Positions 10,333 to 64,000 of a stretch of DNA of 64,000 nt are shown here, one piece after another (within the stretch, counting starts at the first letter, position 1; every line of letters starts with the position of its first letter). Source of the DNA: Stenotrophomonas sp. (GTDB lineage: Bacteria > Pseudomonadota > Gammaproteobacteria > Xanthomonadales > Xanthomonadaceae); NCBI GenBank assembly GCA_031987425.1, contig DALZZL010000001.1:9820-73819 (forward strand), written 5' to 3'. The position numbers were made by a program, and so were the translations under genes. Below the pieces are notes generated by a model, which saw only the letters and a list, made by a program, of their open reading frames with translations, had not been told where the DNA came from and searched no databases.

Positions 10333-10595
10333 GGGGCGGCCACTGCCCGCAGGTGGCATCCCGCCGGTCGCAGCGCTGGCAAGCGGGGGCTATTGCCAGC
10401 GTCGCTTGCCTGACCTAACGTTGCCGACAGGGCTGCGGCGGCCGGGGGAAAACGACCGCGCGGCGGTTTCAGCGCACGTGCGTCACCGTGCACGCCGAAT
10501 CATCCGCATGCACGCCGGTTGAGCAAAGGAACGATGCTGCGGCTCGCCTGCCTGGCAGGGGAGCGCCCTCCAGACTGCCCCGACGGGGTGACATC

Positions 10596-12788: not shown

Positions 12789-12807
12789 TCGGACAAGGAG
12801 AAGTGCG

Positions 12808-24002: not shown

Positions 24003-24124
24003 TACGGCTCCAGGGGAGAAGGGCGCGGCCCGCGCATCGATGATGCGGCGCAGCACGCGGTCGCGCCGGTGTGGCGCACGCATCGTCGGTGGAAACGCCT
24101 GTTTTTCCGCTGTTTCGAGGAATG

Positions 24125-24140
24125 GTGATAGCGCTATCAC
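24125..24140. promoter_or_regulatory. Perfect 16-bp palindrome, xyl-box-like operator (candidate LacI-family XylR site)
   Basis: GTGATAGCGCTATCAC lies in the divergent intergenic region between the ExuT-like gene and the TonB-dependent receptor gene. The core TGATAGCGCTATCA resembles the Xanthomonas xyl-box palindrome, which I recall as TGGTAGCGCTACCA. Confidence 0.55.
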
Positions 24141-24294
24141 TAGCACGCGACGTGATGGCGGCGCTACTGCCGATGACCAGTCGGAGGAGCGCAAATGTCG
24201 ATGACAGCGCTGACAATCAGCCAAATCATGGCCTTGCGTGAAGCACGCCACGCAGTGAGGTGGGTTTTGCTGCCCTGCAGCGTGCATGCCTTAG

Positions 24295-24308
24295 TGATAG
24301 CGCTACCA
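24295..24308. promoter_or_regulatory. Second xyl-box-like operator
   Basis: TGATAGCGCTACCA lies about 110 nt upstream of the TonB-dependent receptor start. One half-site is identical to the remembered xyl-box consensus. Confidence 0.5.
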
Positions 24309-24418
24309 TGCGCCGCGACCCTCCCCGGGTCACCCCCACGCCACACGCAATCCGCATCAGAACAGGCGCGCACGCCATCGCGCGCCCTCCGTTTACGAAT
24401 CAAGGGAAGGGAGTGAGG

Positions 24419-27343
24419 GTGAATACAAAATTCGCACGCAGCACGTTGTCGCATGCCTTGGGGCTGGCGCTGATCGGCATGGCCGCCGCCCCGGCATTCG
24501 CGCAGGACGCCGGCGCGGACGCCGCGACGCCGCCGCAGGACGCGCCCGCCAAGGACGCCGTGACGCTCGATCGCGTCGAGGTCTCCGGCTACCGCCGCAG
24601 CATCCAGTTCTCCACCGACGCCAAGCGCGATTCGGTGACCTTCGCCGATACCGTCTATGCCGAGGACATCGGCAAGTTCCCCGACATGAACATCGGCGAG
24701 TCGCTGAGCCGCGTGCCCGGCGTGCAGCTGTCGCGTGACGTCAACGGCGAGGGCACCAACATCGCCATCCGCGGCCTGGGCTCGAGCTTCACCAAGACCA
24801 CGCTCAACGGCGCCAGCATCGCCACGGCCTCGATTGGCCTGGATGCGCAGAACCAAAACCGCGAAGTCGATCTCAACCTGTTCCCGACCGAGTTCTTCAC
24901 CCAGCTCACCGTCAGCAAGACGCCGACCGCGAGCATGCTCGAAGGCGGCGTTTCCGGCGTGGTCGACATGCGCAGCGCGCGGCCGTTCGATCGCCCCGGC
25001 ACGCACCTGACCTACGCCTTGCAGGGCGGCTACAACAGCACCTCCGACAAGATCAGCCCGAACGGCACGCTGATCGGCAGCTGGACCAACGAATCCGGCA
25101 CCTTCGGCATCCTCGGCGGGGTCACCTCCACGCGCGGCAAACTCGGCCTGCAGGGCTTCGAAAGCGTGGGCTGGACCAACCCCGGCCTGACCTACACCCA
25201 GTGCGGCCTGACCCCACCGGCCGGCACGCCGGCCACCAACCAGCCGGCGTCGTGCAACGTCGGCGGTGGCGGCAACTGGCGCATTCCCGATACCGTGCCG
25301 GCCAGCGGCGCGGCCGCCGGCTTGACCCCAGGCGAGGTGATCGACGCCAACTGGCTGCTCGCGCACAACCCGGGCCTGGACATCAACCAGATCAGCGAGG
25401 CGCTGATCCCGCGCCTGGGCCGCAACGTCTACATGGACGGCGAGCGCAACCGTGACTCGGGCGTTCTGTCGATGGAATGGCGTCCCACCGACGACCTGCA
25501 TTTCTACCTGGATACGCTGTATTCGGAAGCGCATCGCACCAACAACCGCATCGACATGAACCTGATCGGCCGCAATGGCAGCATGGTGCCGGTCAACATG
25601 CAGGTCGATGCGAACAACGTCGTCACCAGCGCCACCTTCGCCAATGCGCAGTACTTCCTGGAAGCACGTCCGTACCGCGAGGACGTGAAGTTCTGGAGCG
25701 TCAATCCGGGCGCGGAAATCCTGTTCGGTGACGCCCAGGACGTGAAGCTCACCGTGCAGGCCAATGCCAGCCGCAGCTGGATGTTCCGCGAATCGCCGAC
25801 CATCCTGGTCAACTCGCCGATCACCACGGTGCAGTACACCAACACCGGCGGCGACCAGCCGAGCATCAGCAGCGGGCTGGACCTCAACGATCCGAACCTG
25901 GGTTGGACCTGGACCGGTGGCCGCGTCAACATCAACAACGAAAAGCGCGTGACCGAAACCCAGGGCGCGCGCGCCGACCTGCAGTTCGGCGACGACAAGC
26001 GCAACATCAAGGTCGGCTTCGCCTATGACGAGGCCGAGCGCCGCATCCAGGGCTTCGACAACAGCGTGGCCTGGGAACAGGTCGTGTGCCGCGGCACGGG
26101 TACCACCTGCACCGGCGGCCCGGGCTCGGCGATCCCGCAGGCCGACCTGGCCTCCTACCTGCGTCCGGGTCCGTACGGCTTCATCACCGTCGATTTCGAC
26201 CAGTTCATGCGCGACACCAACTACTACGCGCTGCGCGACTCGGCGCCGGAGAGCAACTCGGCCAATACCGGCGCTTCCACCGGCGGCATCGAGGAGAAGA
26301 ACTGGGGCTTCTATGTGGAAGCCAACGCCGAGACCGAGGTGTGGAACCGCACGCTGCGCTTCAATGCGGGCATGCGCTATGTCACCACCGACCAGACCAT
26401 CAGCGGGCCGGTGACGCTGAGCGGCGTGCGCAGCTACCAGTCGCTGGATTCGGACTACAAGGAACTGCTGCCCTCGTTCAACCTGGCGTGGGACGTGGCC
26501 GACAACGTGGTGCTGCGCATGTCCGGCTCGCGTACGATGACCCGGCCGAACCCGAGCGCGATGATCCCGGCGACCAACTTCAGCGATCCCTCGGCGCAGA
26601 CCGCCTCTCAGGGCAACCCGAACCTGGCCCCGTACCTGTCGACCAATTTCGACCTCGGCGGTGAGTGGTACACCGGTGGCGAAGGCTATGTGGGCCTGAC
26701 CCTGTTCAACAAGCGCATCAACGGCTTTACCGTCAACGGCGTGCGCCGCATTCCGTTCAACGAGCTCGGCGTGCCGTATGACAGCCTGCTGCCGACCCAG
26801 CAGGCGGCGCTGCAGCAGCGCGGCGGCCCGGACGCGGCCACCGTGGACGTGCAGACCCAGGTCAATGCCGACGGCGTGCTGAACATCCGCGGTGTCGAGG
26901 CGATCTGGGTGCAGCCGCTGGACGTGGTGTTCGACGGCCTGGGCTTCACCGCCAACTACACCCACGTCAACCAGGATTCCGAAGGCGAGGGCGTGCCGGC
27001 GGTGGCCGAGGGTGTGGCGCCGAACCTGTGGAACGGCACGGTGTACTGGGAGAAGGGGCCGGCGTCGGTGCGTGTTTCCTACACCTGGAACGACGACATG
27101 ATCATCTCCGGCGCCAACCAGAACGGCATCCCGTATGCGCGTCTCAATGCGGACGCGCGTGGGCAGATGGACCTGTCCGCCAGCTACACGCTGGAGAACC
27201 TGCCGTCCAAGCCGCAGATCACCCTCAACGTCACCAACATCACCGACGAGCCGCTGCGCACGACGTTCGCGTGGCCCAATGCGACCTATAGCCTGTACTA
27301 CCCGGGCCGTACCATCATGCTCGGTATTCGCGGCACGTTCTGA
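24419..27343 (+). CDS. TonB-dependent receptor (carbohydrate/xylo-oligosaccharide type)
   Basis: 974 aa from a GTG at 24419 (VNTKFARSTLSHALGLALIGMAAAPAFAQ signal peptide, GGGAAGGGAG upstream). Plug motifs LDRVEVSGYR and IAIRGLG. C-terminal TonB box-C ending GRTIMLGIRGTF. Confidence 0.9.
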   Translation: MNTKFARSTLSHALGLALIGMAAAPAFAQDAGADAATPPQDAPAKDAVTLDRVEVSGYRRSIQFSTDAKRDSVTFADTVYAEDIGKFPDMNIGESLSRVPGVQLSRDVNGEGTNIAIRGLGSSFTKTTLNGASIATASIGLDAQNQNREVDLNLFPTEFFTQLTVSKTPTASMLEGGVSGVVDMRSARPFDRPGTHLTYALQGGYNSTSDKISPNGTLIGSWTNESGTFGILGGVTSTRGKLGLQGFESVGWTNPGLTYTQCGLTPPAGTPATNQPASCNVGGGGNWRIPDTVPASGAAAGLTPGEVIDANWLLAHNPGLDINQISEALIPRLGRNVYMDGERNRDSGVLSMEWRPTDDLHFYLDTLYSEAHRTNNRIDMNLIGRNGSMVPVNMQVDANNVVTSATFANAQYFLEARPYREDVKFWSVNPGAEILFGDAQDVKLTVQANASRSWMFRESPTILVNSPITTVQYTNTGGDQPSISSGLDLNDPNLGWTWTGGRVNINNEKRVTETQGARADLQFGDDKRNIKVGFAYDEAERRIQGFDNSVAWEQVVCRGTGTTCTGGPGSAIPQADLASYLRPGPYGFITVDFDQFMRDTNYYALRDSAPESNSANTGASTGGIEEKNWGFYVEANAETEVWNRTLRFNAGMRYVTTDQTISGPVTLSGVRSYQSLDSDYKELLPSFNLAWDVADNVVLRMSGSRTMTRPNPSAMIPATNFSDPSAQTASQGNPNLAPYLSTNFDLGGEWYTGGEGYVGLTLFNKRINGFTVNGVRRIPFNELGVPYDSLLPTQQAALQQRGGPDAATVDVQTQVNADGVLNIRGVEAIWVQPLDVVFDGLGFTANYTHVNQDSEGEGVPAVAEGVAPNLWNGTVYWEKGPASVRVSYTWNDDMIISGANQNGIPYARLNADARGQMDLSASYTLENLPSKPQITLNVTNITDEPLRTTFAWPNATYSLYYPGRTIMLGIRGTF

Positions 27344-46203: not shown

Positions 46204-46305
46204 GCCACCCGCCCGGTTTTTCCGTTTCCTCCTGTCGCCCGCCCGCCAACGCAAGCGTGTCCCCGTCCGGCGATGTTCCCATCACCTTTGATCACAGAGT
46301 GCCTC

Positions 46306-47406
46306 ATGCGTGTCCACCTCCTGCGTTGGTCTTTCCCTGTTCTGATCGTGTTGTTGGTTTCCGCCTGCGGTGGCTCGGACAAGTCGTCCGGGGATGCCGC
46401 CGCCGAGACGTCCGCGCTGGCCGTGAGCGTGGCCCCGGCGCAGACCCAGCAGATGGCGCGTACCGTACTGGTCTCCGGCCCGGTGTCCGCGTTCGAGGAG
46501 ATGCAGCTCGGCGTCGAGCTGAGTGGCCAGCGCGTGACCGCGCTGAAGGTCGATGTGGGCGAGTGGGTCAAGCAGGGGCAGGTGCTGCTCGAACTCGACC
46601 ACCGCACGCTCGACAGCGAACTGGCGCAGGCCGATGCATCGTTGCGACAGGCGCAGACCGCGCAGGAACTGGCCGGCCTGAACTACGAGCGTGGCGCCAA
46701 GCTGGCCACCGAGAAGTTGATCAGCGCCAGCAGCCTGGATGAACTGCGCGCCACCCGCACCGATGCCGAAGCGCAGACCGCCACCGCACGCGCGCGCCGC
46801 GATGCGGCCAAGCTCCAGCGCGACTTCGCCGAACTGCGTGCGCCCGCCGATGGCGTGATCTCCAAGCGCCTCGTGCAGCCGGGGCAGGTGGTGTCCGCCG
46901 GCAGCGAGCTGTTGCGCCTGATCCGCGACAACCGCCTGGAATGGCGCGCGGAACTCTCCGAGGCGCAGCTTGCCGGCGTGGCCGTCGGCAACACCGTGAC
47001 CCTGCCGTATGCCGGCCAGGACATCCTCGGCCGCATCCGCGCGGTCAGCCCGGGCGTCGATTCGCAGACCCGCACCGGCACCATCTACGCGGATCTGCCG
47101 ACGCCCGGTCCGCTCAAGCCGGGGGTCTATGTCGAAGGCCGCATCGTCACCGGCGATGGCCAGGCCTTGACCATCCCCAGTGCCGCGATCGTGCAGCGCG
47201 ATGGCCACAGCTACGTGTTCACCGTCAGCGACAAGCAGCAGGCGCAGCGCAAGCGTGTGCGTACCGGGCAGGTGGCGCAGGGACGCACCGAGATTGTCGA
47301 TGGCCTGAAGGCCGGCGAGCAGGTGGTGGTGGACGGTGCCGGTTTCCTGGGTGAGGGCGATCGCGTGCGCGTGGTCGCCGCGACCGCCAAGGCGGGTGCC
47401 CGATGA
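46306..47406 (+). CDS. RND efflux periplasmic adaptor (membrane fusion protein), lipoprotein
   Basis: 366 aa from MRVHLLRWSFPVLIVLLVSACGG (lipobox LVSAC). Coiled-coil hairpin and beta-barrel motifs (LRAPADGVIS). The stop overlaps the RND start (ATGA). Confidence 0.9.
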   Translation: MRVHLLRWSFPVLIVLLVSACGGSDKSSGDAAAETSALAVSVAPAQTQQMARTVLVSGPVSAFEEMQLGVELSGQRVTALKVDVGEWVKQGQVLLELDHRTLDSELAQADASLRQAQTAQELAGLNYERGAKLATEKLISASSLDELRATRTDAEAQTATARARRDAAKLQRDFAELRAPADGVISKRLVQPGQVVSAGSELLRLIRDNRLEWRAELSEAQLAGVAVGNTVTLPYAGQDILGRIRAVSPGVDSQTRTGTIYADLPTPGPLKPGVYVEGRIVTGDGQALTIPSAAIVQRDGHSYVFTVSDKQQAQRKRVRTGQVAQGRTEIVDGLKAGEQVVVDGAGFLGEGDRVRVVAATAKAGAR

Positions 47407-53185: not shown

Positions 53186-53659
53186 GTGATTCAAAAGACC
53201 CGGTGTCCAGTAGCAGCATCCGTCTTCGTAAGCATCTTGTTAGTCGCGGGCTGTGGTCGAAATCCTGCTGAGCTGGAACCAGCCGACAGCCAGCAATCCA
53301 CCAAGAAAAAGCTGGAGATCATTGAGGTTGTGGCACGACCGGTCGGCGGGTCAGGCGACTTGTCGCTACGCCCAGCGTTTCCCGGCGATGTTGTTGAGAT
53401 CGCGATAAAGTCCAGAGGGCACACGGCCGCCGCGGATTTGTCCGTCAAGATGATCTCGCTCGCCGAAGGTGTCGCGGTGGCTACGCGGGATGTTCGCTTG
53501 AATGCCACCAGTGCGGCTACGCCCAGCGTTCGTTTCGAGCCATCTCCCGAGTGGAAACCCGGCCGCTATCTATTTGAGATCAGCTTGGACGGAAAGCTCG
53601 CGGGTACGCAAGAAATCGAGATATTCCCTGTTGAGATGGCGGAGCACGCAAAGCCTTGA
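53186..53659 (+). CDS. Hypothetical lipoprotein (beta-sandwich-like)
   Basis: 157 aa starting at a GTG at 53186, with GGAGG 7 nt upstream. Lipobox LLVAGC. No family recognised. Lies in the low-GC block. Confidence 0.6.
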   Translation: MIQKTRCPVAASVFVSILLVAGCGRNPAELEPADSQQSTKKKLEIIEVVARPVGGSGDLSLRPAFPGDVVEIAIKSRGHTAAADLSVKMISLAEGVAVATRDVRLNATSAATPSVRFEPSPEWKPGRYLFEISLDGKLAGTQEIEIFPVEMAEHAKP

Positions 53660-53673
53660 TGTCGGTCGCTCGA

Positions 53674-54699
53674 TCAAGGGCTGTCCAGTGTGCGCAGAAA
53701 AGCCGAAAGCTGATGTTGTTCTTCAACCGTTAACTTGATGGGCTGGCCACTGGCCAGCCCGCGGTAGTAGAGCTCGTGTTCGATAGCGGCTTCGAGCGTA
53801 GCTATGCTTCCATCATGCATATATGGCGCAGTGCGCCCTACATTGCGCAGGCTGGGAGTGCGGAACGCTCCAAGATCCTGTGGCGTTGAGGTGACCGCGA
53901 AGCGACCTAACTCTGCAATGTCCGGGTCCGCAAGGATGACGCGTCCGATGGGATCGCCTCCGGCGCGTGCTGCCTCAAGCCTTTGCTGCAGGTTCCTTAT
54001 ATTTCCGGCGATCTTCTCGAAGCCCACACTGGCGTGATGGAATTGGCCATCCGTGAATGCAGGACGTTTGCCTGATATGAGATGGCAGCTGCTGCATTGT
54101 GCCTTGCCGAGGAATAGCTGCAGCCCGCGCTGTGCCTTGCCGTCGAGTGAGCCGTAGTCCTTTCGTGCATATGCTTGATCAAACGCGCTTTCCCCCGTGT
54201 TAAGGGCCTTCAGATAGCTCGCAAGTGCGGCGGCGACCTCTGCTTCATCGATCCGTTTACCGAAGGCGGCGCGATACTCAGATTGCGCGCCGATTCGTGC
54301 TAGCACGGACTTCATGCTGTCGTGGCCCATCTCTCGCGGATTGATGAAGGGCTGCATGACAGCTGCGTCAAGGGTGCTTTCGCGCCCATCCCAAAATTGG
54401 GGGCCGTTTGCCGACACTCCTAGCAGACTCGGTGCATTGCGTGTCCCTGAGCGATTAAAGGCCCCCACGGACACCGGACGACCATCCGTGAAGGCAAGCC
54501 TGGAAATGTGACAGCTCGCACAACTAGTTTGGCCGTCAGCCCCCAATCGTGGGTCGTTGAAAAGCTGTGCGCCAACCTGGACACGCGCTTCCGTTCGCGC
54601 ATCCGGCCACTGGGCGCCACGTTCGCATGAAACTAGCGGCAGCAAGAACAACCCAATACCCGCGAATTTTGCAGCGATAGTTCCAATCCCTAGTTGCAT
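53674..54699 (-). CDS. Di-haem cytochrome c peroxidase (CCP/MauG family), lipoprotein
   Basis: 341 aa from MQLGIGTIAAKFAGIGLFLLPLVSC (lipobox). Two CxxCH haem motifs (CASCH, CSSCH). FWDGRESTLD and PSLRNV...PYMHDGS motifs. ATG at 54697-54699. The track start at 54801 is less likely. Confidence 0.86.
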   Translation of the reverse strand: MQLGIGTIAAKFAGIGLFLLPLVSCERGAQWPDARTEARVQVGAQLFNDPRLGADGQTSCASCHISRLAFTDGRPVSVGAFNRSGTRNAPSLLGVSANGPQFWDGRESTLDAAVMQPFINPREMGHDSMKSVLARIGAQSEYRAAFGKRIDEAEVAAALASYLKALNTGESAFDQAYARKDYGSLDGKAQRGLQLFLGKAQCSSCHLISGKRPAFTDGQFHHASVGFEKIAGNIRNLQQRLEAARAGGDPIGRVILADPDIAELGRFAVTSTPQDLGAFRTPSLRNVGRTAPYMHDGSIATLEAAIEHELYYRGLASGQPIKLTVEEQHQLSAFLRTLDSP

Positions 54700-54820
54700 T
54701 TTTCCGTCTGCCTTGACAGCACCCCTGGGCGAACTGTAAATCGTCGGGCTTGGATGCGCCACGCTGGCGCCAGCGTTCCACGGAGCGGCCATGGGCCGCA
54801 TGGCTCAGGGGTGAGCTGCT

Positions 54821-57800
54821 ATGGAAGGAATCGTGCGGTGGGGTGCCGACGTTCGTCGGCGCCTGTTCGGCAATCGTGGCAAGGTCACGCAGGTATGGGC
54901 CCGTCTCTGCTTGTGGGGTGTATGCGTTTTCGCGCTTGCGATGACTGGCGCCGCCTCGGCAACCCGATACGTCTATGACGCCAATGGACGCCTGGTCGCA
55001 GTTACTAACGACGCAGGTGAGTCGGCGCGCTATGTCTACGACGTGATGGGGAATATTCTCCAGGTCGATCGACTGGCAGCTGGGGAGTTGGCGCTGTTCT
55101 CCTTCTCCCCGGAGCGCGGAGTGTCGGGCACCCAGGTACGACTACAGGGGCAGGGCTTCAGTCCAATTCCGGCGTCCAATGCCGTCCGTTTTGGTGGCGC
55201 TGCTGCAACGGTTACGACCGCTTCGAGCACCGATCTGCTTGTAATTGTGCCGCCAGGGGCGACCACTGGGCCCATTTCGATAGCGGTGGGCTCGCAGTCG
55301 GTCTCCAGTACCAAGGCATTCATCGTCGATGAGAGCGACCTGGCGCCTAGCATTGACGGATTCTCGCCGGCCGTTGGGGTGGCGGGCGACAGCATTACGA
55401 TCACCGGTCGGTCGCTGTATCCACTCAACCACCAAACTGCCGTGCGTGTGGGGGGGCGTACAAGCGCCATCAGCAGTTCGGGCGACACGTCGCTGACGTT
55501 CACGGTGCCATCCGGCGCCAATACTGGAAAAGTCTCGGTTAGCACTCCCTACGGCATGGCCGTAAGCACGCAAGATCTGGTGGTTCTGCCCAGCGGCATC
55601 AGTCCAGGGGAGATCACCTCCAGCACACGTGTACTGCCGGACGCGCCTGCGGGTAATTTTTCCACTCAGGCCACCGGTGAACGGGCGGCGGTGATGGTCG
55701 ACGCGCAACTGGGCGAGTACCTGGATGTCCAGTTCTCGTCGATCAGTGTGGCCAGCTTGGCTTATTCGGTCTATGACCCATCCAATCGCTTGGTTGTCAG
55801 CGGCACGGCGACCCCGGCCAACCCAAGTCTGCTATTGCCGCCGGCCGACAGTGCTGGCACGTATCTGCTGTTGATAAAGCCAGTACAGGGCCCAGCAAGC
55901 TGGAACCTGTCGATTGAGAGGAGTAAGTCCATCACGGAAGATGGCGACTTCTCTTCGCTCGCCACAACCGTCAACGGCCAAAAGAAGCGCCTCATCTTCT
56001 ACGCATCGCGAGATCAACGTCTGGGTCTCGGCGTGGTCGAACCCTCGTTCTCTTCAGGAACCTACATGTCGATCGCGGTGCTAAGCCGCGACGGAACGTC
56101 GGTCACGAGTGGATCCTGCTATGCGTCATACGCCGGGTGCCACTTCAACATCCGCGCTCCTCAGGCGAGCACGTACAGTATCGTATTCACGCCGCAGAGC
56201 GGCCAGACCTTCCAGACGAAAGCGATACTGAGCAACGATCTGTATATCGCATTACAGCGGGAGGTGCCTCTTGACCTGACGCTGGCCAGGCGCGGACAGA
56301 ATGGTCGATTGACATTTTCCGCGCAAGCGGGCGATTCGATTGCTCTCTCGATATTTGCACAGACCACTTTCCCTGCCGGTCGTGCTGTCAACTACAGCAT
56401 CTATAAGCCTGACGGCACATTGTTGTCAGCGGGTGATGTTTTTACTTACCAGATATTCAACTTCCCCAGCCTTCCGCAGAGCGGCGACTACTTCGTCTTT
56501 GTAGATGCCGACTACGGCGCAACCATGGGCTCCCGGGTCGTGCTGATGGACAGCGCCAACAACAATCAGCCGATTGACGGGAACTTTGGCCAATTCGCGG
56601 CTCCCTTGGGGGGGCAATCGGCTTATTTCAATTTCGATGTCACCGAGGCCGATCAGCGTCTGGGGTTGGGCATCAGTGACTTGGTCCTAAGTTCTGGCAC
56701 TTATGTCAATGCCTATGTGTATCGGCCCGACGGAACTACGCTGGTTAGCACGACGTGCACGCAATCCGATGGTGGTTGTGATCTGAATGTCAGGGCGCCG
56801 GTCGTGGGTCGCTATAGCGTCATGGTGAAGCCAGCCAGTGCCAGCCAGACGATGCAGTTCAAGATCACGCTATCCAATGATCTACGCACGGATATCGCGC
56901 GCGAATCCCCGCTGCAGCTGCAGATCAGTCGACGGGGCCAGAATGCTCGGCTGTTCTTTGACGCCCAGGCAGGAGAGACGCTTGCTCTGCAAGTTGCTGG
57001 AACGTCGACTTTTCCAGCCGGAAAATCAGTCACATATCAAGTCGTGAAGCCGGATGGCACCGTCTTCAAAGAGGCCAGCACAAGTTCCTTCTCTACTGTG
57101 CTGTTGTCCTCGTTGCCTTCCGACGGGAAGTACATGGTTTTCGTTGATCCGTCCGACGGAGAGACGTTGGATGTCAGTCTCACACTGACTGATGGGCGCC
57201 AATCGGGCATGGTCATTGATGGCGCTTCGGGAGAGTACGTCGCGCAGATTCCCGGGCATCCTGCCTTCCTCACGTTCGATGCCAGTGAGGTGGATCAACG
57301 TCTGGGTCTTGCAGTTCATGACATACAGCTAAGTACGGGCACGTATGTCAACGTTTACCTTTACCGGCCTGATGGGACGTCCTTGACTTCTGGCACCTGC
57401 TATCAAGCGAGCGGATGTGAGTTCAACATCCGGGCCGCTGCAGTTGGTCGGTACAGCGTCGTAGTTTCACCGCAGGCCTCGTCTAGCGCGATAAGTCTTA
57501 AGGCGACGTTGTCCAACGACATGCGCGGTGTGCTAGCGCGGGAGACGCCAACTAGTCTCGTCATACCGCGTTATGGCCAGAACATGCGCGCGTCATTTGT
57601 TGCGGCGGCGGGAGAGAATCTGGCGCTTCAGATCACGGGCCAGGCTACGGAGTCCAGTGGCCGGTCCGTGACGTACTCGATCTACAAGCCCGATGGCACG
57701 CTGTTGACGAGTGCTGCCCCGTCCGCCTATGCGGACTTGCGAATGATCAATCTGCCGGCAAGCGGCGAGTATCTACTGTTCATTGATCCGACATATGGCG

Positions 57801-60376
57801 TGAAGGCACAGGCGCGCTTGCTGCTCACTGCGGGGAATGGAGACGCGCCTGTCGTTAACGGTGACCAAGGGGGCGTCACTACCACGGTTGCAGGTCAGGC
57901 CACATTTACAACATTTCCCGTTACCGAGGTTGGACAACAACTGGGAATTGGCATAAGTGATCTGACGGCGAGTTCAGGCTCCTACGTATCAATGTACGTC
58001 TATCGACCGAATGGCAGCACGGTTGGAAGCGTCAACTGCAATCTTTCGAACCAGGGATGCGACGCCAACTTCAGTGCGCCGGAAGTGGGGAACTACAGCA
58101 TCGTCGTGGCGCCTCAGAACGCCACGCAGACCATGAGCTACAAGGTCACTGTCAGTAATGATCTTCGTGTAGTGCTTCCGCGCGAGACCACTTTTGCGCT
58201 GGGTATCCCGCGCCGAGGGCAGAACGCGCGCCTGGCTTTCAGCGCCCAAGCTGGCGAGACCATGGCGTTGAAGCTGTCCGGCCAGGCGACGGTGCCGGCC
58301 GGAAAGAGCGTTTCCTATCAGATATACAAGCCAGACGGAACCTCGCTCACTAGCGGCGGCGGCACCAGCAACGACGTCATCAATATGACCACTCTGCCTG
58401 CGAGCGGCGAGTATCAGGTATTCGTGGACCCTGCCTATGGGGCGACGGTCAATGCGCAGCTTGTACTCACCAGCGGTACTGACAGTGGGGCTACTGTTGA
58501 TGGCGCGGTCGGCGATTTGTCTACGGTGTTGCCGGGGCAGTCTGCCTACGTGACTTTCCAGGCGAGCGCTGGTCAGCAGATCGGATTGGGGATCAGTGAC
58601 CTTGCGGTGTCTTCGGGCAGCTACGTGAGCGTTTACACCTACCGGCCTGGAGGAGTGACCGCGGGAAGTGGCACTTGCTCTGTCAGCAATGGTGGATGCG
58701 CCTTCAACATCAACGCTGTTGAAACGGGCATATATAGCGTGGTGGTTACGCCGCAAAGTGCCAGCCAAACGATGAGCTTCAAGGCGACGATTTCGCAAGA
58801 TCTGGTCGCTACGCTGGAACGCGATGCGCCCTTCGATCTAGTGCTTCCTCGCCGTGGGCAGAATCAGCGCCTGAACTTCAATGGCCAGGCCGGCGAGGCG
58901 TTGTCATTGCAGGTGGCTGGACAAACGTCCGTCCCCTCCGGGCGTTCCGTCTACTACCGTGTCTACAAGCCAGATGGTTCGGCACTTAACAGCTTCAGTA
59001 CCACCAATCTCGGGGCCATGGATATGAGGTTGCCTGTCACTGGCACCTATCAGGTACTGGTGGAGGGTGGGAGCGGTGAGAGCGTGGTCGCGCGCGTCAC
59101 ACTGTCGACAGGTGACACCCAGCAGGTCGGCGGAAGTCCAGGCAGTCTTCAGACCGCATTCGGCGGGCAACCGGTGTACGCCACTTTCCAGGCGGCCGCC
59201 GGCCAGCAACTGGGCATCGGAATCTACGATCTCGTCCTGTCCACCGGGACGAGTCTGGGGGCGGCCGTCTATCGCCCCAACGGCACTAGCGCGACAACCG
59301 CCACCTGCAGCACTTCCAATCAAGGTTGCAAGCTGAGCCTGACTGCTACCGACGCCGGGATCTACAGCGTGGTGGTTACGCCCCAGACGGCAAACCAGAC
59401 CATGTCGTTCAAGCTGGCCATCTCGCCAGATCTGACGGGCACGCTTCAGAAGGACACTCCGGTGGACATCAACATTGCGCGAAGAGGGCAAAACGCGCGA
59501 TTCACCTATGCCGGACAGGCGGGGGAGTGGCTGTCTCTCCAAGTGGCCGGCCAGATGACGGTACCAGCGGGTAAAGTGGTCTATTACAGAATTTATCGCC
59601 CGGAAGGCACGCTGCTTATCAGCGGCAACATAACCGGAATGGGTACGGTCAATCCCACAGCGTTGCCGGCTACGGGCGCGTATACCGTCCTGGTTGATTC
59701 TGGCTATGGCGAAACAGTCAGCTCGCGCGTCACCATCGCCAGTGGCGCTAGCGCTTTGCAGCTTGACGGTGCCTCGACTTCGGTGGCGACCTCTTTTGGT
59801 GGGCAGCCCGTATTTTTGGCTTTCAATGCAACCGCGGGTCAGCGTCTGGGGGTGGGCCTTACCGAAGTGCAGGCGTCCGCGGGTACCTATTTCGGCGCAG
59901 CGGTTTACCGTCCGGATGGATCCTCTACATCAGGCAACTGTTATCCACAGAATTATGGTTGTGAGTTCAACACAACGGCCAATGTGACGGGCACGTATCG
60001 GATCGTGGTAACGCCGGCGTTGTCTACCCAGTTGATAGGCTTCAGGGCCACAGTGTCGACTGACCTTGAGAAGACGTTGCAGCGCGGCGAGCGGACGGTA
60101 ATCGAGTTGTCCCGCGAGGGGCAGAATGGCTGGATTGCCTTCAATGGGGTCGCCGGAGAGGCGCCGTCGATATTGATCGCAGACCCTAGTACATGGCCTT
60201 CCGGCGGCAGCACAAACTACACGGTGTACCGCCCAGATGGCGGGACAGTGGCGTCCACTACCTCAGTTGTCGCCAAGACTTGGCAGCTTCCCAGCCTGCC
60301 ATCGACGGGCGAGTATCGAATCTTCGTGAGTCCGGCAGCTGCTTTGCCGTTGACCGTGGCGTTAACCGTGCAGTAA
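54821..60376 (+). CDS. Giant secreted repeat protein: signal peptide, one YD-repeat pair, 2 IPT/TIG domains, about 15 PPC-like beta-sandwich domains
   Basis: 1851-aa uninterrupted ORF. Signal-like segment LCLWGVCVFALAMTGAASA. YD motif RYVYDANGRLVAVTNDAGESARYVYDVMGNILQV. Two TIG-like segments (FSPERGVSGTQVRLQGQGF..., FSPAVGVAGDSITITGRSL...). Then seven ~213-aa two-domain units recognisable by DQRLGLGISD...YVYRPDGT...C-x5-7-C and RRGQNARL.F..QAGE...YKPDGT...LP.SGEY.VFVDP. Confidence 0.9.
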   Translation: MEGIVRWGADVRRRLFGNRGKVTQVWARLCLWGVCVFALAMTGAASATRYVYDANGRLVAVTNDAGESARYVYDVMGNILQVDRLAAGELALFSFSPERGVSGTQVRLQGQGFSPIPASNAVRFGGAAATVTTASSTDLLVIVPPGATTGPISIAVGSQSVSSTKAFIVDESDLAPSIDGFSPAVGVAGDSITITGRSLYPLNHQTAVRVGGRTSAISSSGDTSLTFTVPSGANTGKVSVSTPYGMAVSTQDLVVLPSGISPGEITSSTRVLPDAPAGNFSTQATGERAAVMVDAQLGEYLDVQFSSISVASLAYSVYDPSNRLVVSGTATPANPSLLLPPADSAGTYLLLIKPVQGPASWNLSIERSKSITEDGDFSSLATTVNGQKKRLIFYASRDQRLGLGVVEPSFSSGTYMSIAVLSRDGTSVTSGSCYASYAGCHFNIRAPQASTYSIVFTPQSGQTFQTKAILSNDLYIALQREVPLDLTLARRGQNGRLTFSAQAGDSIALSIFAQTTFPAGRAVNYSIYKPDGTLLSAGDVFTYQIFNFPSLPQSGDYFVFVDADYGATMGSRVVLMDSANNNQPIDGNFGQFAAPLGGQSAYFNFDVTEADQRLGLGISDLVLSSGTYVNAYVYRPDGTTLVSTTCTQSDGGCDLNVRAPVVGRYSVMVKPASASQTMQFKITLSNDLRTDIARESPLQLQISRRGQNARLFFDAQAGETLALQVAGTSTFPAGKSVTYQVVKPDGTVFKEASTSSFSTVLLSSLPSDGKYMVFVDPSDGETLDVSLTLTDGRQSGMVIDGASGEYVAQIPGHPAFLTFDASEVDQRLGLAVHDIQLSTGTYVNVYLYRPDGTSLTSGTCYQASGCEFNIRAAAVGRYSVVVSPQASSSAISLKATLSNDMRGVLARETPTSLVIPRYGQNMRASFVAAAGENLALQITGQATESSGRSVTYSIYKPDGTLLTSAAPSAYADLRMINLPASGEYLLFIDPTYGVKAQARLLLTAGNGDAPVVNGDQGGVTTTVAGQATFTTFPVTEVGQQLGIGISDLTASSGSYVSMYVYRPNGSTVGSVNCNLSNQGCDANFSAPEVGNYSIVVAPQNATQTMSYKVTVSNDLRVVLPRETTFALGIPRRGQNARLAFSAQAGETMALKLSGQATVPAGKSVSYQIYKPDGTSLTSGGGTSNDVINMTTLPASGEYQVFVDPAYGATVNAQLVLTSGTDSGATVDGAVGDLSTVLPGQSAYVTFQASAGQQIGLGISDLAVSSGSYVSVYTYRPGGVTAGSGTCSVSNGGCAFNINAVETGIYSVVVTPQSASQTMSFKATISQDLVATLERDAPFDLVLPRRGQNQRLNFNGQAGEALSLQVAGQTSVPSGRSVYYRVYKPDGSALNSFSTTNLGAMDMRLPVTGTYQVLVEGGSGESVVARVTLSTGDTQQVGGSPGSLQTAFGGQPVYATFQAAAGQQLGIGIYDLVLSTGTSLGAAVYRPNGTSATTATCSTSNQGCKLSLTATDAGIYSVVVTPQTANQTMSFKLAISPDLTGTLQKDTPVDINIARRGQNARFTYAGQAGEWLSLQVAGQMTVPAGKVVYYRIYRPEGTLLISGNITGMGTVNPTALPATGAYTVLVDSGYGETVSSRVTIASGASALQLDGASTSVATSFGGQPVFLAFNATAGQRLGVGLTEVQASAGTYFGAAVYRPDGSSTSGNCYPQNYGCEFNTTANVTGTYRIVVTPALSTQLIGFRATVSTDLEKTLQRGERTVIELSREGQNGWIAFNGVAGEAPSILIADPSTWPSGGSTNYTVYRPDGGTVASTTSVVAKTWQLPSLPSTGEYRIFVSPAAALPLTVALTVQ
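54962..55069 (+). other. Isolated YD/RHS repeat pair at the mature N-terminus of the giant protein
   Basis: aa 48-83, TRYVYDANGRLVAVTNDAGESARYVYDVMGNILQVD, matches the YD-repeat consensus (Y-x-Y-D-x-x-G-R/N-L) twice. Confidence 0.75.
55091..55591 (+). other. Two IPT/TIG-like Ig-fold domains
   Basis: aa 91-169 and 176-257. The pattern F-S-P-x-x-G-x-x-G-x-x-V/I-x-L/I-x-G-x-x-F/L ... V-x-F/V-G-G ... L-x-V/F-x-V-P ... G-x-V/I-S-V/I is typical of TIG domains. Assigned by eye. Confidence 0.65.
55628..60373 (+). repeat. Coding tandem array: one leading B-type domain plus seven (A+B) units of PPC-like domains, period ~213 aa (~640 nt)
   Basis: The RRGQN-type motif recurs at aa ~491, 705, 918 and 1131, and three more times after that. 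The LG(L/I)G...Y(V/L)YRP(D/N)G motif also occurs seven times. Units are diverged, with no long identical DNA stretches seen. Confidence 0.8.
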
Positions 60377-60433
60377 CGAATTCGTGTTTGCCGTCGGATG
60401 GCGGCATCGAGCGCAAAGGAATGGAGCAAGCGC

Positions 60434-63400
60434 ATGGCTAGCAAGCGGAAGGGCTGGATGTCCGTCACGGCGGGACTGCTGTTGGGGCTGGTGGCCGCGG
60501 CTGCGGCGTCCAATCACGTGTCGATCCCAACGTCAGGGCAATCATCTGAAGGAGGCCAGCTGACCGAGGCCAGGGCCGCCAGGGCAGTGCCCGGCACCGA
60601 GCGATATCTGCGTTTGCAGGGCGACCAGACGATTTACTTGTCTTCCAATGGCACGGAGCTGCGGCTGCAGACCTCCGCCAAGTCGAACCGCGGTCGAAGC
60701 TGGCTGCTGCCCACGGTGCGCCGAAATGCTAGCTTGACGTTGCTTCCTGACGGACGTGTGCTGGTCTGGGGGGGGCGAGATGCCGCGGGCAACATGCAGG
60801 CAGGGGGGCTGTGGTTCGATCCGGAACTGCGTGCCCTGGATCCAGCGGATCGTCTGCCCATGAGCGCAAGAAGCGACCATACGGCCACGGTGCTCACCGA
60901 TGGCCGTGTGTTGTTCGCTGGCGGCGTTGGCAACCCACACGCCTACGAATTGTGGAATCCTGATACTGGCCTTTGGAATGCCGTCGGTGAAGGCATGGCA
61001 CCGGCAAGCGGGCATCGGGCCGTATTGCAGGCAGATGGTCAGGTGCGGCTCTTGGGCGCCGGACGGGCGAGGGTCGGGGGGCGAGAGGACCTGCTCTTCA
61101 ATCCTGAGGGCGACGTGGTCGTTGCGGCGACGGATACACGAGGGAAGACCGTGCCGCTTGGCCTGGCCGGTTCCGTGCCGGAGCAAGGCGCGAATAACGT
61201 TGCGATCAACGCTCGGCTAGCGATTCGCTTTTCCGAACCGGTGCGTCTGAGTGATCTCAATGAAGCCACCTTTACCTTGTTTGGTCCCGGTGGCGCGGCG
61301 CCGGTTCGTGTCGTTGCAGTAGAGGATGGTCGGCTCGCTTTCGTCACCCCCCGTCGGGAGCTCTTTCCCGATGCTGCCTATACCCTGATGGTCGATGGCG
61401 TTACGAGCCAGAGCGGCGAGCGTCTCCCATTGATAACGCTGGATTTCCGAACGGCTGCGATTGCCGCTCCACAGAGCGCCTTGGGTGCTGACAAATCGAC
61501 AAGCAGCGGTGGGCAGTCCGTCGATCTCGCGGGAAAGGAAGGCTACTGCGGGACCAAATTGAGAACGCTTGTACTCTGCCAGGAGCAGGGTGAGATGCGT
61601 GATGGCGTGTGGACGCCCGGCAAGGACAATGCGGGCGAGAATTGGCGAGTTCCTGGTCGTCAGCCCGAACTGATGCCGCTCGGATTCATGCCTGAGCTTT
61701 TCAAGGCCTGGGGAAAGGCCGCATTGACCGGATCCATCCGGCGCGCTGATGGGCAGCCCGTGGCTGGTGTTGCCGTCAATGTGGGTGACAGCTTTGGCAA
61801 GACCAACGCGGAAGGGCAGTTCCTTATCTACGACGTTCCTTCGGGCAGACAGAAGCTATACGTAGACGGCACGGCCGCCAATGGGCCAGGCGTTGAATAC
61901 GGGCAATTTGTCATCGGTGTAGACGTGCAGCCAGGAGCGCTGACACAGGTGCCGTTCACTATGTGGCTGCCCCGCATCACTGCGCGCGACAAGATCAGGA
62001 TTCCGTCGCCGACAACGGAGGACATGGTTCTGAAGCATCCCGACCTGCCCGGCATGGAACTCCATATTCCGGCGGGCACGGTGATCCGGGATCACAAGGG
62101 AAAGATCGTGACCGAAGTCGCCATTGTGCCGACACCGGTCAATCGCTCACCGTACCCGTTGCCTACCAATTTCCCGATGTACTTTACCTTGCAGCCGGGT
62201 GGTGCCGTCCTGCAGGGCCTTACGCCAGAAGCAGGAAGGGGCGCTCGCGTCTATTACCCCAACTACGATCATCATCCCGCAGGTACTGCCGCGGACTTCT
62301 GGCTGTACGACGCAATGGAGGGCTGGCGCGTATACGGCCAGGGCAGGGTGAATGACGCGGAGACCCAGTTCGTGCCGGAGGATGGCGTGGCGCTGCGGGA
62401 AGTCGTGACATTTGGCGCGGCGGTGAGCCCCAGTGACCCGGCGCCGGAGGAGGGTAAGCCACCGGAGCCCCAGGAGTGTGGGGAGTGCAATGCAGGCACT
62501 GGTAACAGCGCCTCCGCGGGCGATCCCATTGATCTTAAAACCGGCCGATTCACCTATCAGGAAACCGACATCGCCATTAGTGATGTCGTCCCCATCACCG
62601 TTGGCCGAAACTACCGTCCCAGTGACCGCGTCAAGCGTGAGTTCGGATACGGCACAGCCGCGGATTTTGCGTACCGTCTCTCCATGAACGGCACAAGCTA
62701 CAGCGAGCTTCAGTTGGTACTGCCGAATGGATCGCCGCTAGTGTTCAAGCAGATATCCGGCACTGGAGCTTACGGTGTATGGCGATATGACGGAAAGCAA
62801 GCGATCTCGGGGGCAACCCTGTACTCGGACAATGTTGACGGCTACAAGTACTATTTAAGGCTGCGCGATGGCTCGCAGATGGTGTTCGAACCCCATAGCC
62901 CGAATCGGCTGCTATGGAGCCAGGATCGTTTCGGAAACCGGGTCGATTATGTCTACGATGCTGGGCGCGTAAGCCGCATCATCTCGCCCAACAGCCGATA
63001 CATCGACCTCGACTACGACACCCAGAACCGAATCATCTCGGCCAAGGACATGCTTGGGTCGACTTGGCGCTACGAGTACAACGCCCAGGGCCTTCTCGCA
63101 AAGGTCATCTATCCGGATGAAACCTTTCGTCGGTACGAGTATCAGAGCTGGGGAAGTAGTTCGACGCTTCGGCATCGCCTGTCAGCCATCTTCGATCAGC
63201 GAGGAAATCGCGTTCTGCTCAATGAGTACGAGCAGACTGGTACGGGCGCCGCGACCACGACCACAGGGCGCGTCATACGCCAGACGCTAGCGGATGGAGC
63301 GGTTTACCAAATTCAGTACGACCACATAGATGGAAGCACGACAGGCACCCTGGTAACGCACCCGGATGGCAGTCAGCGACGTGTGGTGTTTGGAGATGGG

Positions 63401-64000
63401 ATGTATCCGATTTCGGATACGCTGGCCTATGGGACGCCGCTGGCGCAGGAGTATCGGTTCGAGCGCGATGCGGAAGGAAGGATGACCGCACGGATCGATC
63501 CGATCGGGCGGCGGACGGAGTATGAGTACGATGGTTTTGGGCAACTCGTGGGGACCACCGTCCTGGCCGGAACCAGCCGAGCAGTCGAGACGAGAATCGC
63601 CTATACCGTGGAAGGCCAGGTGGCGTCGCTCACCGATCCGCTCAACCGCACCGTAACGCTGGAGTATGCCCAGGGCTGCCTGTCACGCGTCACCAATGCG
63701 CTGGGCAAGGCGAGTACGTTCACCTGCACATCTTCTGGCCTCCCGGAATCGGTAACCGACCCGCTATCCAATACCAGCGTGTCCTACTACGTCGGCGCGG
63801 ATCTGGTGACCCTAAGCGACCCTCTCGGGCGCGACATCAGCTTTCGCTACGACGCCCTCGGGCGTCAGGTCGCCGCGCAAGGGCCCGATGGCCAAATGGC
63901 GCGTGCCGAGTACAACAGCCAAAACCAACTCGTGAAAAACGTCGGCCCGGACGGAGGAACCAGCGAGCTGGCCTACGATGCCAACGGTAATATGACCGAC
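60434..64000 (+). CDS. Sec-signal RHS/YD-repeat protein with teneurin-like N-terminal domains (partial, 3' end outside the window)
   Basis: An open frame of 1189 codons with no stop runs from the ATG at 60434 to the window end. It is therefore missing from the ORF track. GGAG lies 7 nt upstream. Signal peptide MASKRKGWMSVTAGLLLGLVAAAAAS. Kelch-like repeats (LLPDGRVLVWGGRD, VLTDGRVLFAGGVG). Ig-like segment (NARLAIRFSEPV...TFTLFG). CarboxypepD_reg/TTR-like segment (LTGSIRRADGQPVAGVAVNV...NAEGQFLIYDVPSG). RHS core entry GDPIDLKTGRFTYQETDIAISDVVPITVGRNYRPSD at 62516, then many YD repeats (DRFGNRVDYVYDAGRV, WRYEYNAQGLL, RTEYEYDGFGQL, ISFRYDALGRQV). An alternative in-frame ATG lies at 60398. Confidence 0.9.
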   Translation, partial: MASKRKGWMSVTAGLLLGLVAAAAASNHVSIPTSGQSSEGGQLTEARAARAVPGTERYLRLQGDQTIYLSSNGTELRLQTSAKSNRGRSWLLPTVRRNASLTLLPDGRVLVWGGRDAAGNMQAGGLWFDPELRALDPADRLPMSARSDHTATVLTDGRVLFAGGVGNPHAYELWNPDTGLWNAVGEGMAPASGHRAVLQADGQVRLLGAGRARVGGREDLLFNPEGDVVVAATDTRGKTVPLGLAGSVPEQGANNVAINARLAIRFSEPVRLSDLNEATFTLFGPGGAAPVRVVAVEDGRLAFVTPRRELFPDAAYTLMVDGVTSQSGERLPLITLDFRTAAIAAPQSALGADKSTSSGGQSVDLAGKEGYCGTKLRTLVLCQEQGEMRDGVWTPGKDNAGENWRVPGRQPELMPLGFMPELFKAWGKAALTGSIRRADGQPVAGVAVNVGDSFGKTNAEGQFLIYDVPSGRQKLYVDGTAANGPGVEYGQFVIGVDVQPGALTQVPFTMWLPRITARDKIRIPSPTTEDMVLKHPDLPGMELHIPAGTVIRDHKGKIVTEVAIVPTPVNRSPYPLPTNFPMYFTLQPGGAVLQGLTPEAGRGARVYYPNYDHHPAGTAADFWLYDAMEGWRVYGQGRVNDAETQFVPEDGVALREVVTFGAAVSPSDPAPEEGKPPEPQECGECNAGTGNSASAGDPIDLKTGRFTYQETDIAISDVVPITVGRNYRPSDRVKREFGYGTAADFAYRLSMNGTSYSELQLVLPNGSPLVFKQISGTGAYGVWRYDGKQAISGATLYSDNVDGYKYYLRLRDGSQMVFEPHSPNRLLWSQDRFGNRVDYVYDAGRVSRIISPNSRYIDLDYDTQNRIISAKDMLGSTWRYEYNAQGLLAKVIYPDETFRRYEYQSWGSSSTLRHRLSAIFDQRGNRVLLNEYEQTGTGAATTTTGRVIRQTLADGAVYQIQYDHIDGSTTGTLVTHPDGSQRRVVFGDGMYPISDTLAYGTPLAQEYRFERDAEGRMTARIDPIGRRTEYEYDGFGQLVGTTVLAGTSRAVETRIAYTVEGQVASLTDPLNRTVTLEYAQGCLSRVTNALGKASTFTCTSSGLPESVTDPLSNTSVSYYVGADLVTLSDPLGRDISFRYDALGRQVAAQGPDGQMARAEYNSQNQLVKNVGPDGGTSELAYDANGNMTD

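Follow-up and report, generated by a model that had tools for sequence, protein, structure and literature searches.

A predicted Sec-exported RHS toxin module with a giant YD-TIG protein and a MauG-type haem enzyme in Stenotrophomonas

How toxins with an RHS/YD shell reach their targets when they carry a Sec signal only is an open question, which is raised again by a locus at the end of a 64,000-nucleotide (nt) stretch of Stenotrophomonas sp. DNA (contig DALZZL010000001.1), called the window throughout. Here, the gene for a large RHS protein follows the gene for a giant YD-TIG protein on the same strand, and the gene for a di-haem lipoprotein is divergently paired with the giant gene. A reading made from the sequence only had described this gene trio, the Sec signals, the 57-nt spacing, the divergent haem lipoprotein and the low guanine-cytosine (GC) block in which they lie, and all of them were found again where it had placed them. 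On balance, we lean towards a horizontally mobile antibacterial RHS module that would use Sec export and not a type VI secretion system (T6SS) or a toxin complex (Tc), in which the RHS protein and the giant would form a two-part toxin, matured by the enzyme and released through the type II secretion system (T2SS). Such a module provides testable candidates for delivery, targeting and maturation.

The RHS toxin, its tip and its immunity gene

The RHS gene (60434..64000, + strand), recognized by Pfam and NCBIfam, runs out of the window after the first 1189 of its 1779 codons. The remainder of the locus was supplied by L001, a metagenome contig of the Joint Genome Institute (JGI), which was found by exact look-up of the giant protein and matched the window with 0 mismatches over 19180 nt. 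The completed protein has 1779 aa, and its gene ends at window-equivalent position 65773. The ATG at 60434 lies 57 nt beyond the stop codon of the giant gene with a GGAG ahead of it; the JGI gene call starts at the ATG at 60398, 36 nt upstream of the one with the Shine-Dalgarno sequence. Signal peptides were assessed by eye and from the N-terminal helices of AlphaFold2 (AF2) models. In the RHS protein, the signal comprised residues 1-26 (MASKRKGWMSVTAGLLLGLVAAAAAS, followed by NH) and formed an N-terminal helix in the model. Behind it came a four-bladed Kelch domain (residues ~55-235), Big_5 (239-340), a Cys-containing linker, a TTR/CarboxypepD_reg domain (431-508), a conserved TIP-like domain (510-690), a CGEC motif with the DUF6531 plug (682-771), and the YD shell from residue ~772 onwards (PF05593, E 3.7e-58; Rhs_assc_core TIGR03696, E 9e-26). 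The self-cleavage motif DPIGL-x18-DPHGL was located at residues 1604-1631 (DPIGL at 1604, DPHGL at 1627). The tip of 148 aa that follows it matched PF10908 (Tlde1) at 27.5 bits (E 4.6e-6), below the cutoff of 30.1, and contained a YkuD-like H...S-x-G-C motif in the form HGRS...SEGCI. The RHS stop codon is overlapped by an Imm57 gene with a signal peptide of its own (PF15596, E 1e-26; L001 20950-21498, window-equivalent 65770-66318). Because a signal peptide and a cleavage motif occur together with a tip that resembles Tlde1/L,D-peptidases and with Imm57 as the next gene, the locus is predicted to encode a Sec-exported antibacterial RHS polymorphic toxin with a peptidoglycan target in the periplasm. 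The term adhesion system, used in the sequence-only reading, understates a locus whose predicted cargo is a peptidoglycan toxin with an immunity gene. Downstream, where that reading had advised looking for toxin, immunity and secretion genes, L001 provided the tip and the Imm57 gene, and a standard T6SS or Tc cluster was absent.

We compared the tip with those of related RHS proteins, and the 32 tips were all different, with a mean column identity of about 10% against 33-60% identity for the cores. Pfam labelled some of them as TseH, YkuD, Tlde1, CHAP, M91 or PT-HINT, and as HNH in Acidobacteria, suggesting that the annotated tips are mostly directed at peptidoglycan or membrane. Eight of these 32 unrelated tips ended in CxC, for example CGCQ, CSCSQ or CGCTK (loci L007, L015, L020, L052, L054, L065, L084 and L095). 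The CGEC motif of the RHS protein (62477-62488) stands just ahead of DUF6531 and, together with the CxC tips, recalls the plug-to-toxin disulfide C719-C2216 of a Bacillus teneurin-like protein (TLP). Rearranged loci were also observed. Tandem duplicated giant genes lay upstream of one RHS gene in L002 (6002-17173) and L010 (3167-17929), a second near-full-length RHS gene followed the main one in L022, and orphan RHS C-terminal cassettes were present in L027 (23211-25121) and L028 (19810-21267). Such duplicated giants, second RHS genes and orphan cassettes are typical of recombination-driven toxin switching.

The N-terminal part of the RHS protein was modelled with AF2 on a 10-sequence alignment, and the model was of moderate quality, with a predicted local distance difference test score (pLDDT) of 62.6. 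It contained the four-bladed Kelch domain, an Ig domain, the disordered Cys-containing linker, the TTR domain and the conserved domain at 510-690. Foldseek matched it to galactose-oxidase-type Kelch+Ig proteins, to the teneurin-like protein 9ifo and to teneurins, while a profile search of the PDB with the TTR/TIP-like region returned Kelch proteins only and no TLP sequence match. By sequence, the shell was nearest to T6SS Rhs shells (8h8a, 7q97), with TLP next. The Kelch region (60596-61138) was modelled with four blades, compared with six or seven in the propellers that it resembles, and might be closed through oligomerization or by pairing with a partner. We also considered the Kelch-Ig part as a radical copper oxidase of the galactose-oxidase/GlxA type that would supply peroxide to the haem enzyme; this was rejected, because four blades are too few and a conserved Cys/Tyr/His set is missing.

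The sequence-only reading had put the Sec-dependent RHS system forward as a candidate undescribed one, and this proved too strong, since the toxin class is known (PMC3482391, PMC7259588, PMC13018210). Signal-peptide ('T2SS') RHS toxins, including Tox-LD-peptidase with Imm16/Imm57, were catalogued by Zhang, Aravind et al. 2012 (PMC3482391), where the export route is inferred from the signal peptide alone. The protein studied here shares with that class the Sec signal, the RHS repeats, the DPxGL core, the swappable tip, a predicted toxin of the L,D-peptidase type and the adjacent Imm57. In contrast, the words Kelch, TIG and peroxidase did not occur in the catalogue text in a word search, and the giant, the MauG-type enzyme and the lipoproteins are apparently undescribed there. 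A second comparison is with the TLPs, Sec-targeted teneurin-like YD-shell toxins that, according to Raoelijaona et al. 2026 (PMC13018210), have no apparent delivery machinery. Both have a Sec signal, a YD shell, Ig, TTR and a conserved insert before the plug, a polymorphic tip and a downstream immunity gene, and the BIG-TTR-TIP module of TLPs may have a counterpart in Big_5, CarboxypepD_reg and the conserved domain at 510-690, which holds the TIP position without a TLP sequence match. However, the RHS protein of the window carries no NHL propeller between plug and shell, its RHS repeats follow directly after DUF6531, its N-terminal domain is Kelch, its adhesion array is on a separate polypeptide, and no such partner genes have been described with TLPs. 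Since it has no NHL domain, we do not assign it, from its domain composition, to the TLPs in the strict sense. No literature was found that links RHS toxins to TIG/PPC giants, cytochrome c peroxidase, vesicles or secretomes, although subscription-only papers may exist, and the partnership of giant, haem enzyme and lipoprotein with RHS seems to be undescribed.

A giant YD-TIG protein and a haem enzyme beside RHS genes

The giant gene (54821..60376, +) encodes 1851 aa with Pfam matches to RHS_repeat, two TIG domains and PPC/MG2-like domains. A signal (residues 1-47) is followed by two YD repeats (48-85), two TIG domains (91-256), a beta-sandwich (265-367) and seven units of ~213 aa (378-1851), each of which contains two PPC-like beta-sandwiches, a GQN motif and a C-x5-6-C pair. 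The YD repeats start right behind the predicted signal cleavage site, between AASA and T, and RHS_repeat scored 28.8 bits on residues 52-82, where the cutoff is 22. Residues 1-640 gave an all-beta AF2 model (pLDDT 87; predicted template modelling score 0.70) in which the YD repeats form hairpins, ahead of a pair of Ig-like TIG domains and three beta-sandwiches, and Foldseek related it to tandem-sandwich binding proteins, namely neuropilin, Bacteroides SGBP-B, the ColG collagen-binding tandem and the IPT domains of plexin and MET. No lipobox, beta-barrel or sorting signal was found in the giant as an anchor, and the sequence ends in a sandwich domain. We detected 283 homologues, annotated only as IPT/TIG or YD-repeat proteins, in Lysobacter, Luteimonas, Xanthomonas, Pseudoxanthomonas, Luteibacter, Dyella, Burkholderia pseudomallei, Collimonas, Roseateles and Corallococcus. 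Their alignments identified the N-terminal YD-TIG-TIG element (54962..55588, +) as the most conserved segment, with Y50, D53, R57, Y71, Y73, G77 and others invariant or nearly so, which makes this element a candidate RHS-docking module. An exhaustive HMMER search with residues 48-260 returned 24268 matches, mostly generic multi-TIG proteins, and gave no family size.

Related loci (numbered with the prefix L) were gathered by DNA-pattern scans, seeded either with the giant in species-representative genomes or with the RHS N-terminus in metagenomes; a word-indexed protein search with the RHS N-terminus gave 23 proteins only, several of them short or partial. The giant-seeded scan yielded 26 loci with a full N-terminus, and an RHS gene lay immediately 3' of the giant in 18 of the 19 that could be evaluated. 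At the nineteenth, it was found 2.5 kb downstream with the haem enzyme gene in between. Conversely, among 61 RHS-seeded loci the giant was directly 5' in 51/54 evaluable cases. The haem enzyme was present in 24/25 giant-seeded and 19/22 RHS-seeded loci (43/47 over both scans). The gene trio thus recurs in more than 70 genome or metagenome loci besides the window, far beyond chance, and the co-occurrence proposed as a check in the sequence-only reading holds in both directions. Across loci, the giant and RHS genes point in the same direction with short or overlapping spacing; promoter and terminator scans of the DNA gave counts no higher than in shuffled sequence, and none of the terminators fell between the two genes. 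Two further carriers of the trio were confirmed with Pfam, Burkholderia sp. MSHR3999 and Corallococcus terminator; in the latter, the three genes share one direction and transposases lie on the flanks. The module ranges over Xanthomonadales, Myxococcota and Burkholderiales, the B. pseudomallei group among them, and Acidobacteriota have a reduced form.

The feature that tracks RHS genes appears to be the YD element. Poly-TIG proteins that carry it, internally in P0116 and near the C-terminus in P0103, are followed 12-16 nt later by a Kelch-Big_5-DUF6531 RHS gene, whereas the two poly-TIG proteins without it (P0085, P0120) have no RHS neighbour. This control of two against two is small but in line with the more than 70 loci described above, and we regard the YD element as the probable coupling feature. 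A variant in Pyrinomonadaceae (L030, L032, L033 7579-21083, L034 and L037) places a short YD-TIG protein of 440-473 aa beside the RHS gene. Instead of the di-haem enzyme, these loci encode a multihaem cytochrome c of 751 aa that contains TPR repeats. It is accompanied by a second, small cytochrome c, by a Gly-rich secreted protein of 480 aa and by an NHL-containing RHS protein of 2350-2550 aa with an immunity gene after it. Two of their RHS tips (L033, L037) carry PT-HINT, and one tip has an HNH match. Pyrinomonadaceae thus keep a YD-TIG protein, an RHS gene and a periplasmic haem protein together, albeit with a haem protein of another kind, and the association spans phyla. The same gene order was also seen in metagenome-assembled genomes of Candidatus Eremiobacterota (L007) and Methylobacterium (L021). 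Their small lipoproteins (LipoB, see below) are about 80% and about 55% identical, respectively, to that of Dyella, and these are probably mis-binned contigs and not real occurrences in those phyla. The sequence-only reading had proposed that the giant is a surface stalk or adaptor of the RHS shell. The adaptor or partner part gains support, as the YD-TIG element predicts RHS adjacency, while the surface stalk finds none in a giant with no anchor.

The product of the divergent gene (53674..54801, -) is a MauG/MbnH-type di-haem lipoprotein that matched CCP_MauG (PF03150, E 1.8e-43) and has two CxxCH motifs (CASCH, CSSCH) and the lipobox L-V-S-C. Its true start is probably the internal Met at ~54699; the public gene call on L001 reduces the enzyme to a 227-aa fragment. 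The top NCBIfam match was the MbnH family (TIGR04039, E 1.3e-50), below the family cutoff, with MauG next and also below its cutoff. MbnH (PDB 6e1c) and MauG aligned to the enzyme over the full length, while classical bacterial cytochrome c peroxidases (bCCPs) aligned to the N-terminal half only. Among 49 homologues from related loci, both CxxCH motifs, FWDGR, PYMHDG and E-x-Y-Y-R were kept, and no conserved candidate for a Met ligand was found. The inter-haem Trp lies in the invariant FWDGR, and the Tyr of E-x-YYR, which follows PYMHDG, was offset by two residues from the MbnH Tyr in the pairwise alignment. This conserved Tyr may stand at the position of the Tyr ligand of MauG and MbnH. In Lysobacteraceae-type loci the N-terminus carries a lipobox, and in the others it is an uncleaved or type-I signal, from which a periplasmic location is expected throughout. 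Members of the MauG type modify protein substrates with the aid of peroxide (PMC11892367). Features in common with MauG, MbnH and BthA are the two c-type haems, the inter-haem Trp and possibly the Tyr, and the gene lies beside those of candidate protein substrates. Unlike the MauG and MbnH systems, the locus has no MbnP or methylamine dehydrogenase partner. The module may hold a new class of protein substrates for MauG-type enzymes.

ORF clustering over 116 loci revealed only four recurrent partner families: giant/RHS, the haem enzyme (59 of the 116), small lipoproteins and LytTR regulators. In the window, the lipoprotein is LipoA (157 aa; 53186..53659, +), which has the lipobox L-V-A-G-C and is convergent with the haem enzyme gene; homologues occupy the same position in 15-16 related loci. 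A different lipoprotein of ~170 aa, LipoB, is encoded between the haem enzyme and giant genes in 32-33 loci of the Rhodanobacteraceae/Burkholderia type. LipoA had no match in Pfam or NCBIfam, and neither lipoprotein matched any NCBIfam model that would point to an MbnP-type partner. LytTR response regulators, some with histidine kinases, adjoin the module in 13 loci (for example, L012 3292-4032 and L112 7080-8962), and it is possible that they are dedicated to it.

Recurrence of these genes might also reflect co-regulation of physically independent proteins. The giant would then act on its own as an adhesin or in the matrix, the haem enzyme would detoxify peroxide as a peroxidase, and the RHS protein would be a separately secreted bacteriocin; they would share an island and an operon because all of them serve close-range competition or biofilm life. 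If the partnership were merely regulatory, the locus would be an ordinary polymorphic toxin island. This is consistent with the likeness of the giant to generic tandem-sandwich binding proteins and its lack of a domain known to bind RHS, and with the haem enzyme, which is absent near some loci and otherwise divergent, between the genes or downstream. However, adjacency of giant and RHS is near-obligate in both directions across several phyla, with start-stop overlaps, and follows the YD element and not TIG arrays alone. Moreover, the nearest full-length relatives of the enzyme are the protein-modifying MauG and MbnH and not the detoxifying bCCPs. We therefore consider mere co-regulation rather unlikely.

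Export route and proposed mechanism

We then asked which machinery could export such a toxin. The absence of T6SS, Tc and two-partner secretion (TPS) genes from the window, as claimed in the sequence-only reading, was borne out by Pfam scans of ~45 window ORFs, in which no T6SS, Tc, TpsB or T2SS genes were found, and T6SS, Tc and TPS genes were likewise missing downstream on L001 and among the families recurring in the 116 loci, where no family of secretion machinery recurred at all. TpsB, the TPS domain and the FHA repeats of two-partner secretion/contact-dependent inhibition were absent from the window and from recurrent neighbours. PAAR, prePAAR, VgrG, Hcp and the Eag chaperone were found neither in the RHS protein nor in the window or the Pfam-labelled related loci, and TcA and TcB-N/SpvB domains gave no Pfam match, the likeness to TcdB2-TccC3 being limited to the generic Rhs core. 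A HlyD-family match at 46273-47406 belongs to the membrane-fusion protein of a TetR/AcrB resistance-nodulation-division (RND) efflux operon and not to a type I secretion system.

These results bear on the possibility that the RHS protein is ordinary T6SS or Tc cargo whose machinery lies elsewhere in the genome. The RHS core is closest by sequence to the solved T6SS Rhs shells 8h8a and 7q97, and Rhs genes commonly lie apart from T6SS clusters. The T6SS Rhs effectors RhsP (8h8a), Rhs1 (7q97) and Tse5 share with our protein the shell, the plug and the DPxGL autoproteolysis motif, and Tlde1-type tips occur there too. In contrast to them, it has other N-terminal domains and, in place of a PAAR, prePAAR or VgrG-binding N-terminus and a chaperone, a cleavable Sec signal, whereas T6SS cargo is loaded in the cytoplasm. 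As in Tc toxins, the proposed toxin would be multi-polypeptide with a large separate targeting component. Unlike Tc, it has no TcA-like alpha-helical channel and no TcB-N/SpvB, its giant is all-beta, its cargo is predicted to be antibacterial and to act in the periplasm, and its export would be by Sec. With none of PAAR, VgrG, Hcp, Eag, TcA or TcB-N/SpvB found in the protein, the window or the Pfam-labelled related loci and no further family recurring in the 116 loci, we consider T6SS or Tc delivery very improbable.

Xanthomonadales generally encode the type II secretion pathway Xps. In Xanthomonas perforans, the extracellular activity of the RHS bacteriocin Bcn-A was lost in an xpsD (T2SS) mutant (PMC7259588). 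Bcn-A and the toxin of the window are both RHS toxins from Xanthomonadales hosts, each with an immunity gene beside it and with accessory genes, which are required in the case of Bcn-A. Bcn-A differs in its length of 1398 aa, in its modelled architecture of plug, beta-propeller and barrel, and in its small accessory ORFs (124, 100 and 290 aa), among which neither a giant TIG/PPC protein nor a haem enzyme was reported (PMC7259588).

The reading towards which we lean, a T2SS-released two-part toxin, can be put in steps. Both large proteins would fold in the periplasm, which their conserved Cys pairs fit. The YD-TIG element of the giant would dock on the RHS protein to give a two-part toxin, perhaps with the beta-strands of the YD repeats continuing from one chain into the other. 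TcB and TcC jointly form one YD cocoon, so YD strands can join two chains. The ~17 sandwich domains of the giant would serve as a long target- or surface-binding arm, and the di-haem enzyme may oxidatively mature or cross-link one of the partners, as MauG and MbnH do with protein substrates. The complex would then exit through Xps, the general type II pathway, on which Bcn-A depends according to genetic evidence, and the toxin would need to reach only the periplasm of the target.

A bolder form of this mechanism, which we find doubtful, is that the giant, the MauG-type enzyme and the small lipoprotein constitute an unrecognized T6SS-independent delivery apparatus for Sec-exported RHS toxins in diderms. 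The YD-TIG element would plug into the shell, a peroxide-driven cross-link or cofactor (Tyr, Trp or Cys) would lock or trigger the complex, and the lipoprotein would tether the 60-70 nm arm at the outer membrane. If true, this would be a contact-dependent toxin lance distributed from Xanthomonadales and the B. pseudomallei group to Myxococcota, with a multihaem-cytochrome variant in Acidobacteriota.

Alternatively, both proteins might be held at the outer membrane by the lipoproteins and released in outer-membrane vesicles or on lysis, and vesicle fusion would put the cocoon straight into the target periplasm, the site where a peptidoglycan toxin acts. The proteins have Sec signals only, the 116 loci showed no dedicated outer-membrane exporter, the immunity protein is predicted to be periplasmic, the annotated tips are mostly periplasm- or membrane-acting, and the module includes two lipoproteins, all of which fit this route. 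Lysobacter-group bacteria also deliver lytic enzymes in vesicles. However, the literature search found no vesicle or secretome data on these proteins, the HNH nuclease tips of the Acidobacteria variants must reach the cytoplasm, and a long binding arm is hard to explain within a vesicle. We therefore give this route limited weight.

Several points weigh against the T2SS-released two-part toxin. The T2SS route is carried over from Bcn-A, whose RHS protein is built differently and has other accessory genes, and a cocoon together with a rod, each of ~190 kDa, would be a large load for a secretin. The co-occurrence counts take in related metagenome contigs, which are not all independent. The haem enzyme was absent within reach in L002, L064, L073, L079 and L112 and may be dispensable. 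The Tlde1 match of the tip stays under the Pfam cutoff, the giant has no recognizable anchor, and the support for contact between giant and RHS protein, the core of the adaptor idea, is only genomic.

The island and the rest of the window

The module lies in DNA of distinct composition, with a GC content of ~57-63% beyond ~50 kb of the window compared with 68-70% upstream. On L001, the Imm57 gene is followed on its 3' side by small unannotated ORFs and then by a DUF3653/VC1465-family ORF, at 53-58% GC. This ORF (L001 21736-22146, window-equivalent 66556-66966), ~240 nt past the immunity gene, matched both the DUF3653 'phage protein' family and the VC1465 family (Xer recombination activation factor), which suggests that the toxin island is bordered by a Xer-exploiting or phage-derived mobile element. 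Farther downstream of the island, ARAGORN predicted an 89-nt tRNA-Met-like sequence (L001 24453-24541, -) that overlaps a low-GC ORF (23972-24709, -) and may be spurious or a remnant attachment site. No tRNA was found at the island border within the window.

Elsewhere in the window, Pfam identified genes for xylan/uronate utilization, TonB-dependent receptors, regulators, the TetR/membrane-fusion protein/AcrB efflux operon, a sulfatase and MarC. Unrelated to the RHS locus, the region 10488-14514 holds a gene for a CHAT-domain (caspase-like) protein of 766 aa, which overlaps an amidohydrolase-like ORF of 597 aa at the start of the latter. The UxaC protein of the window is 91% identical to that of Stenotrophomonas panacihumi, placing the host in Lysobacteraceae.

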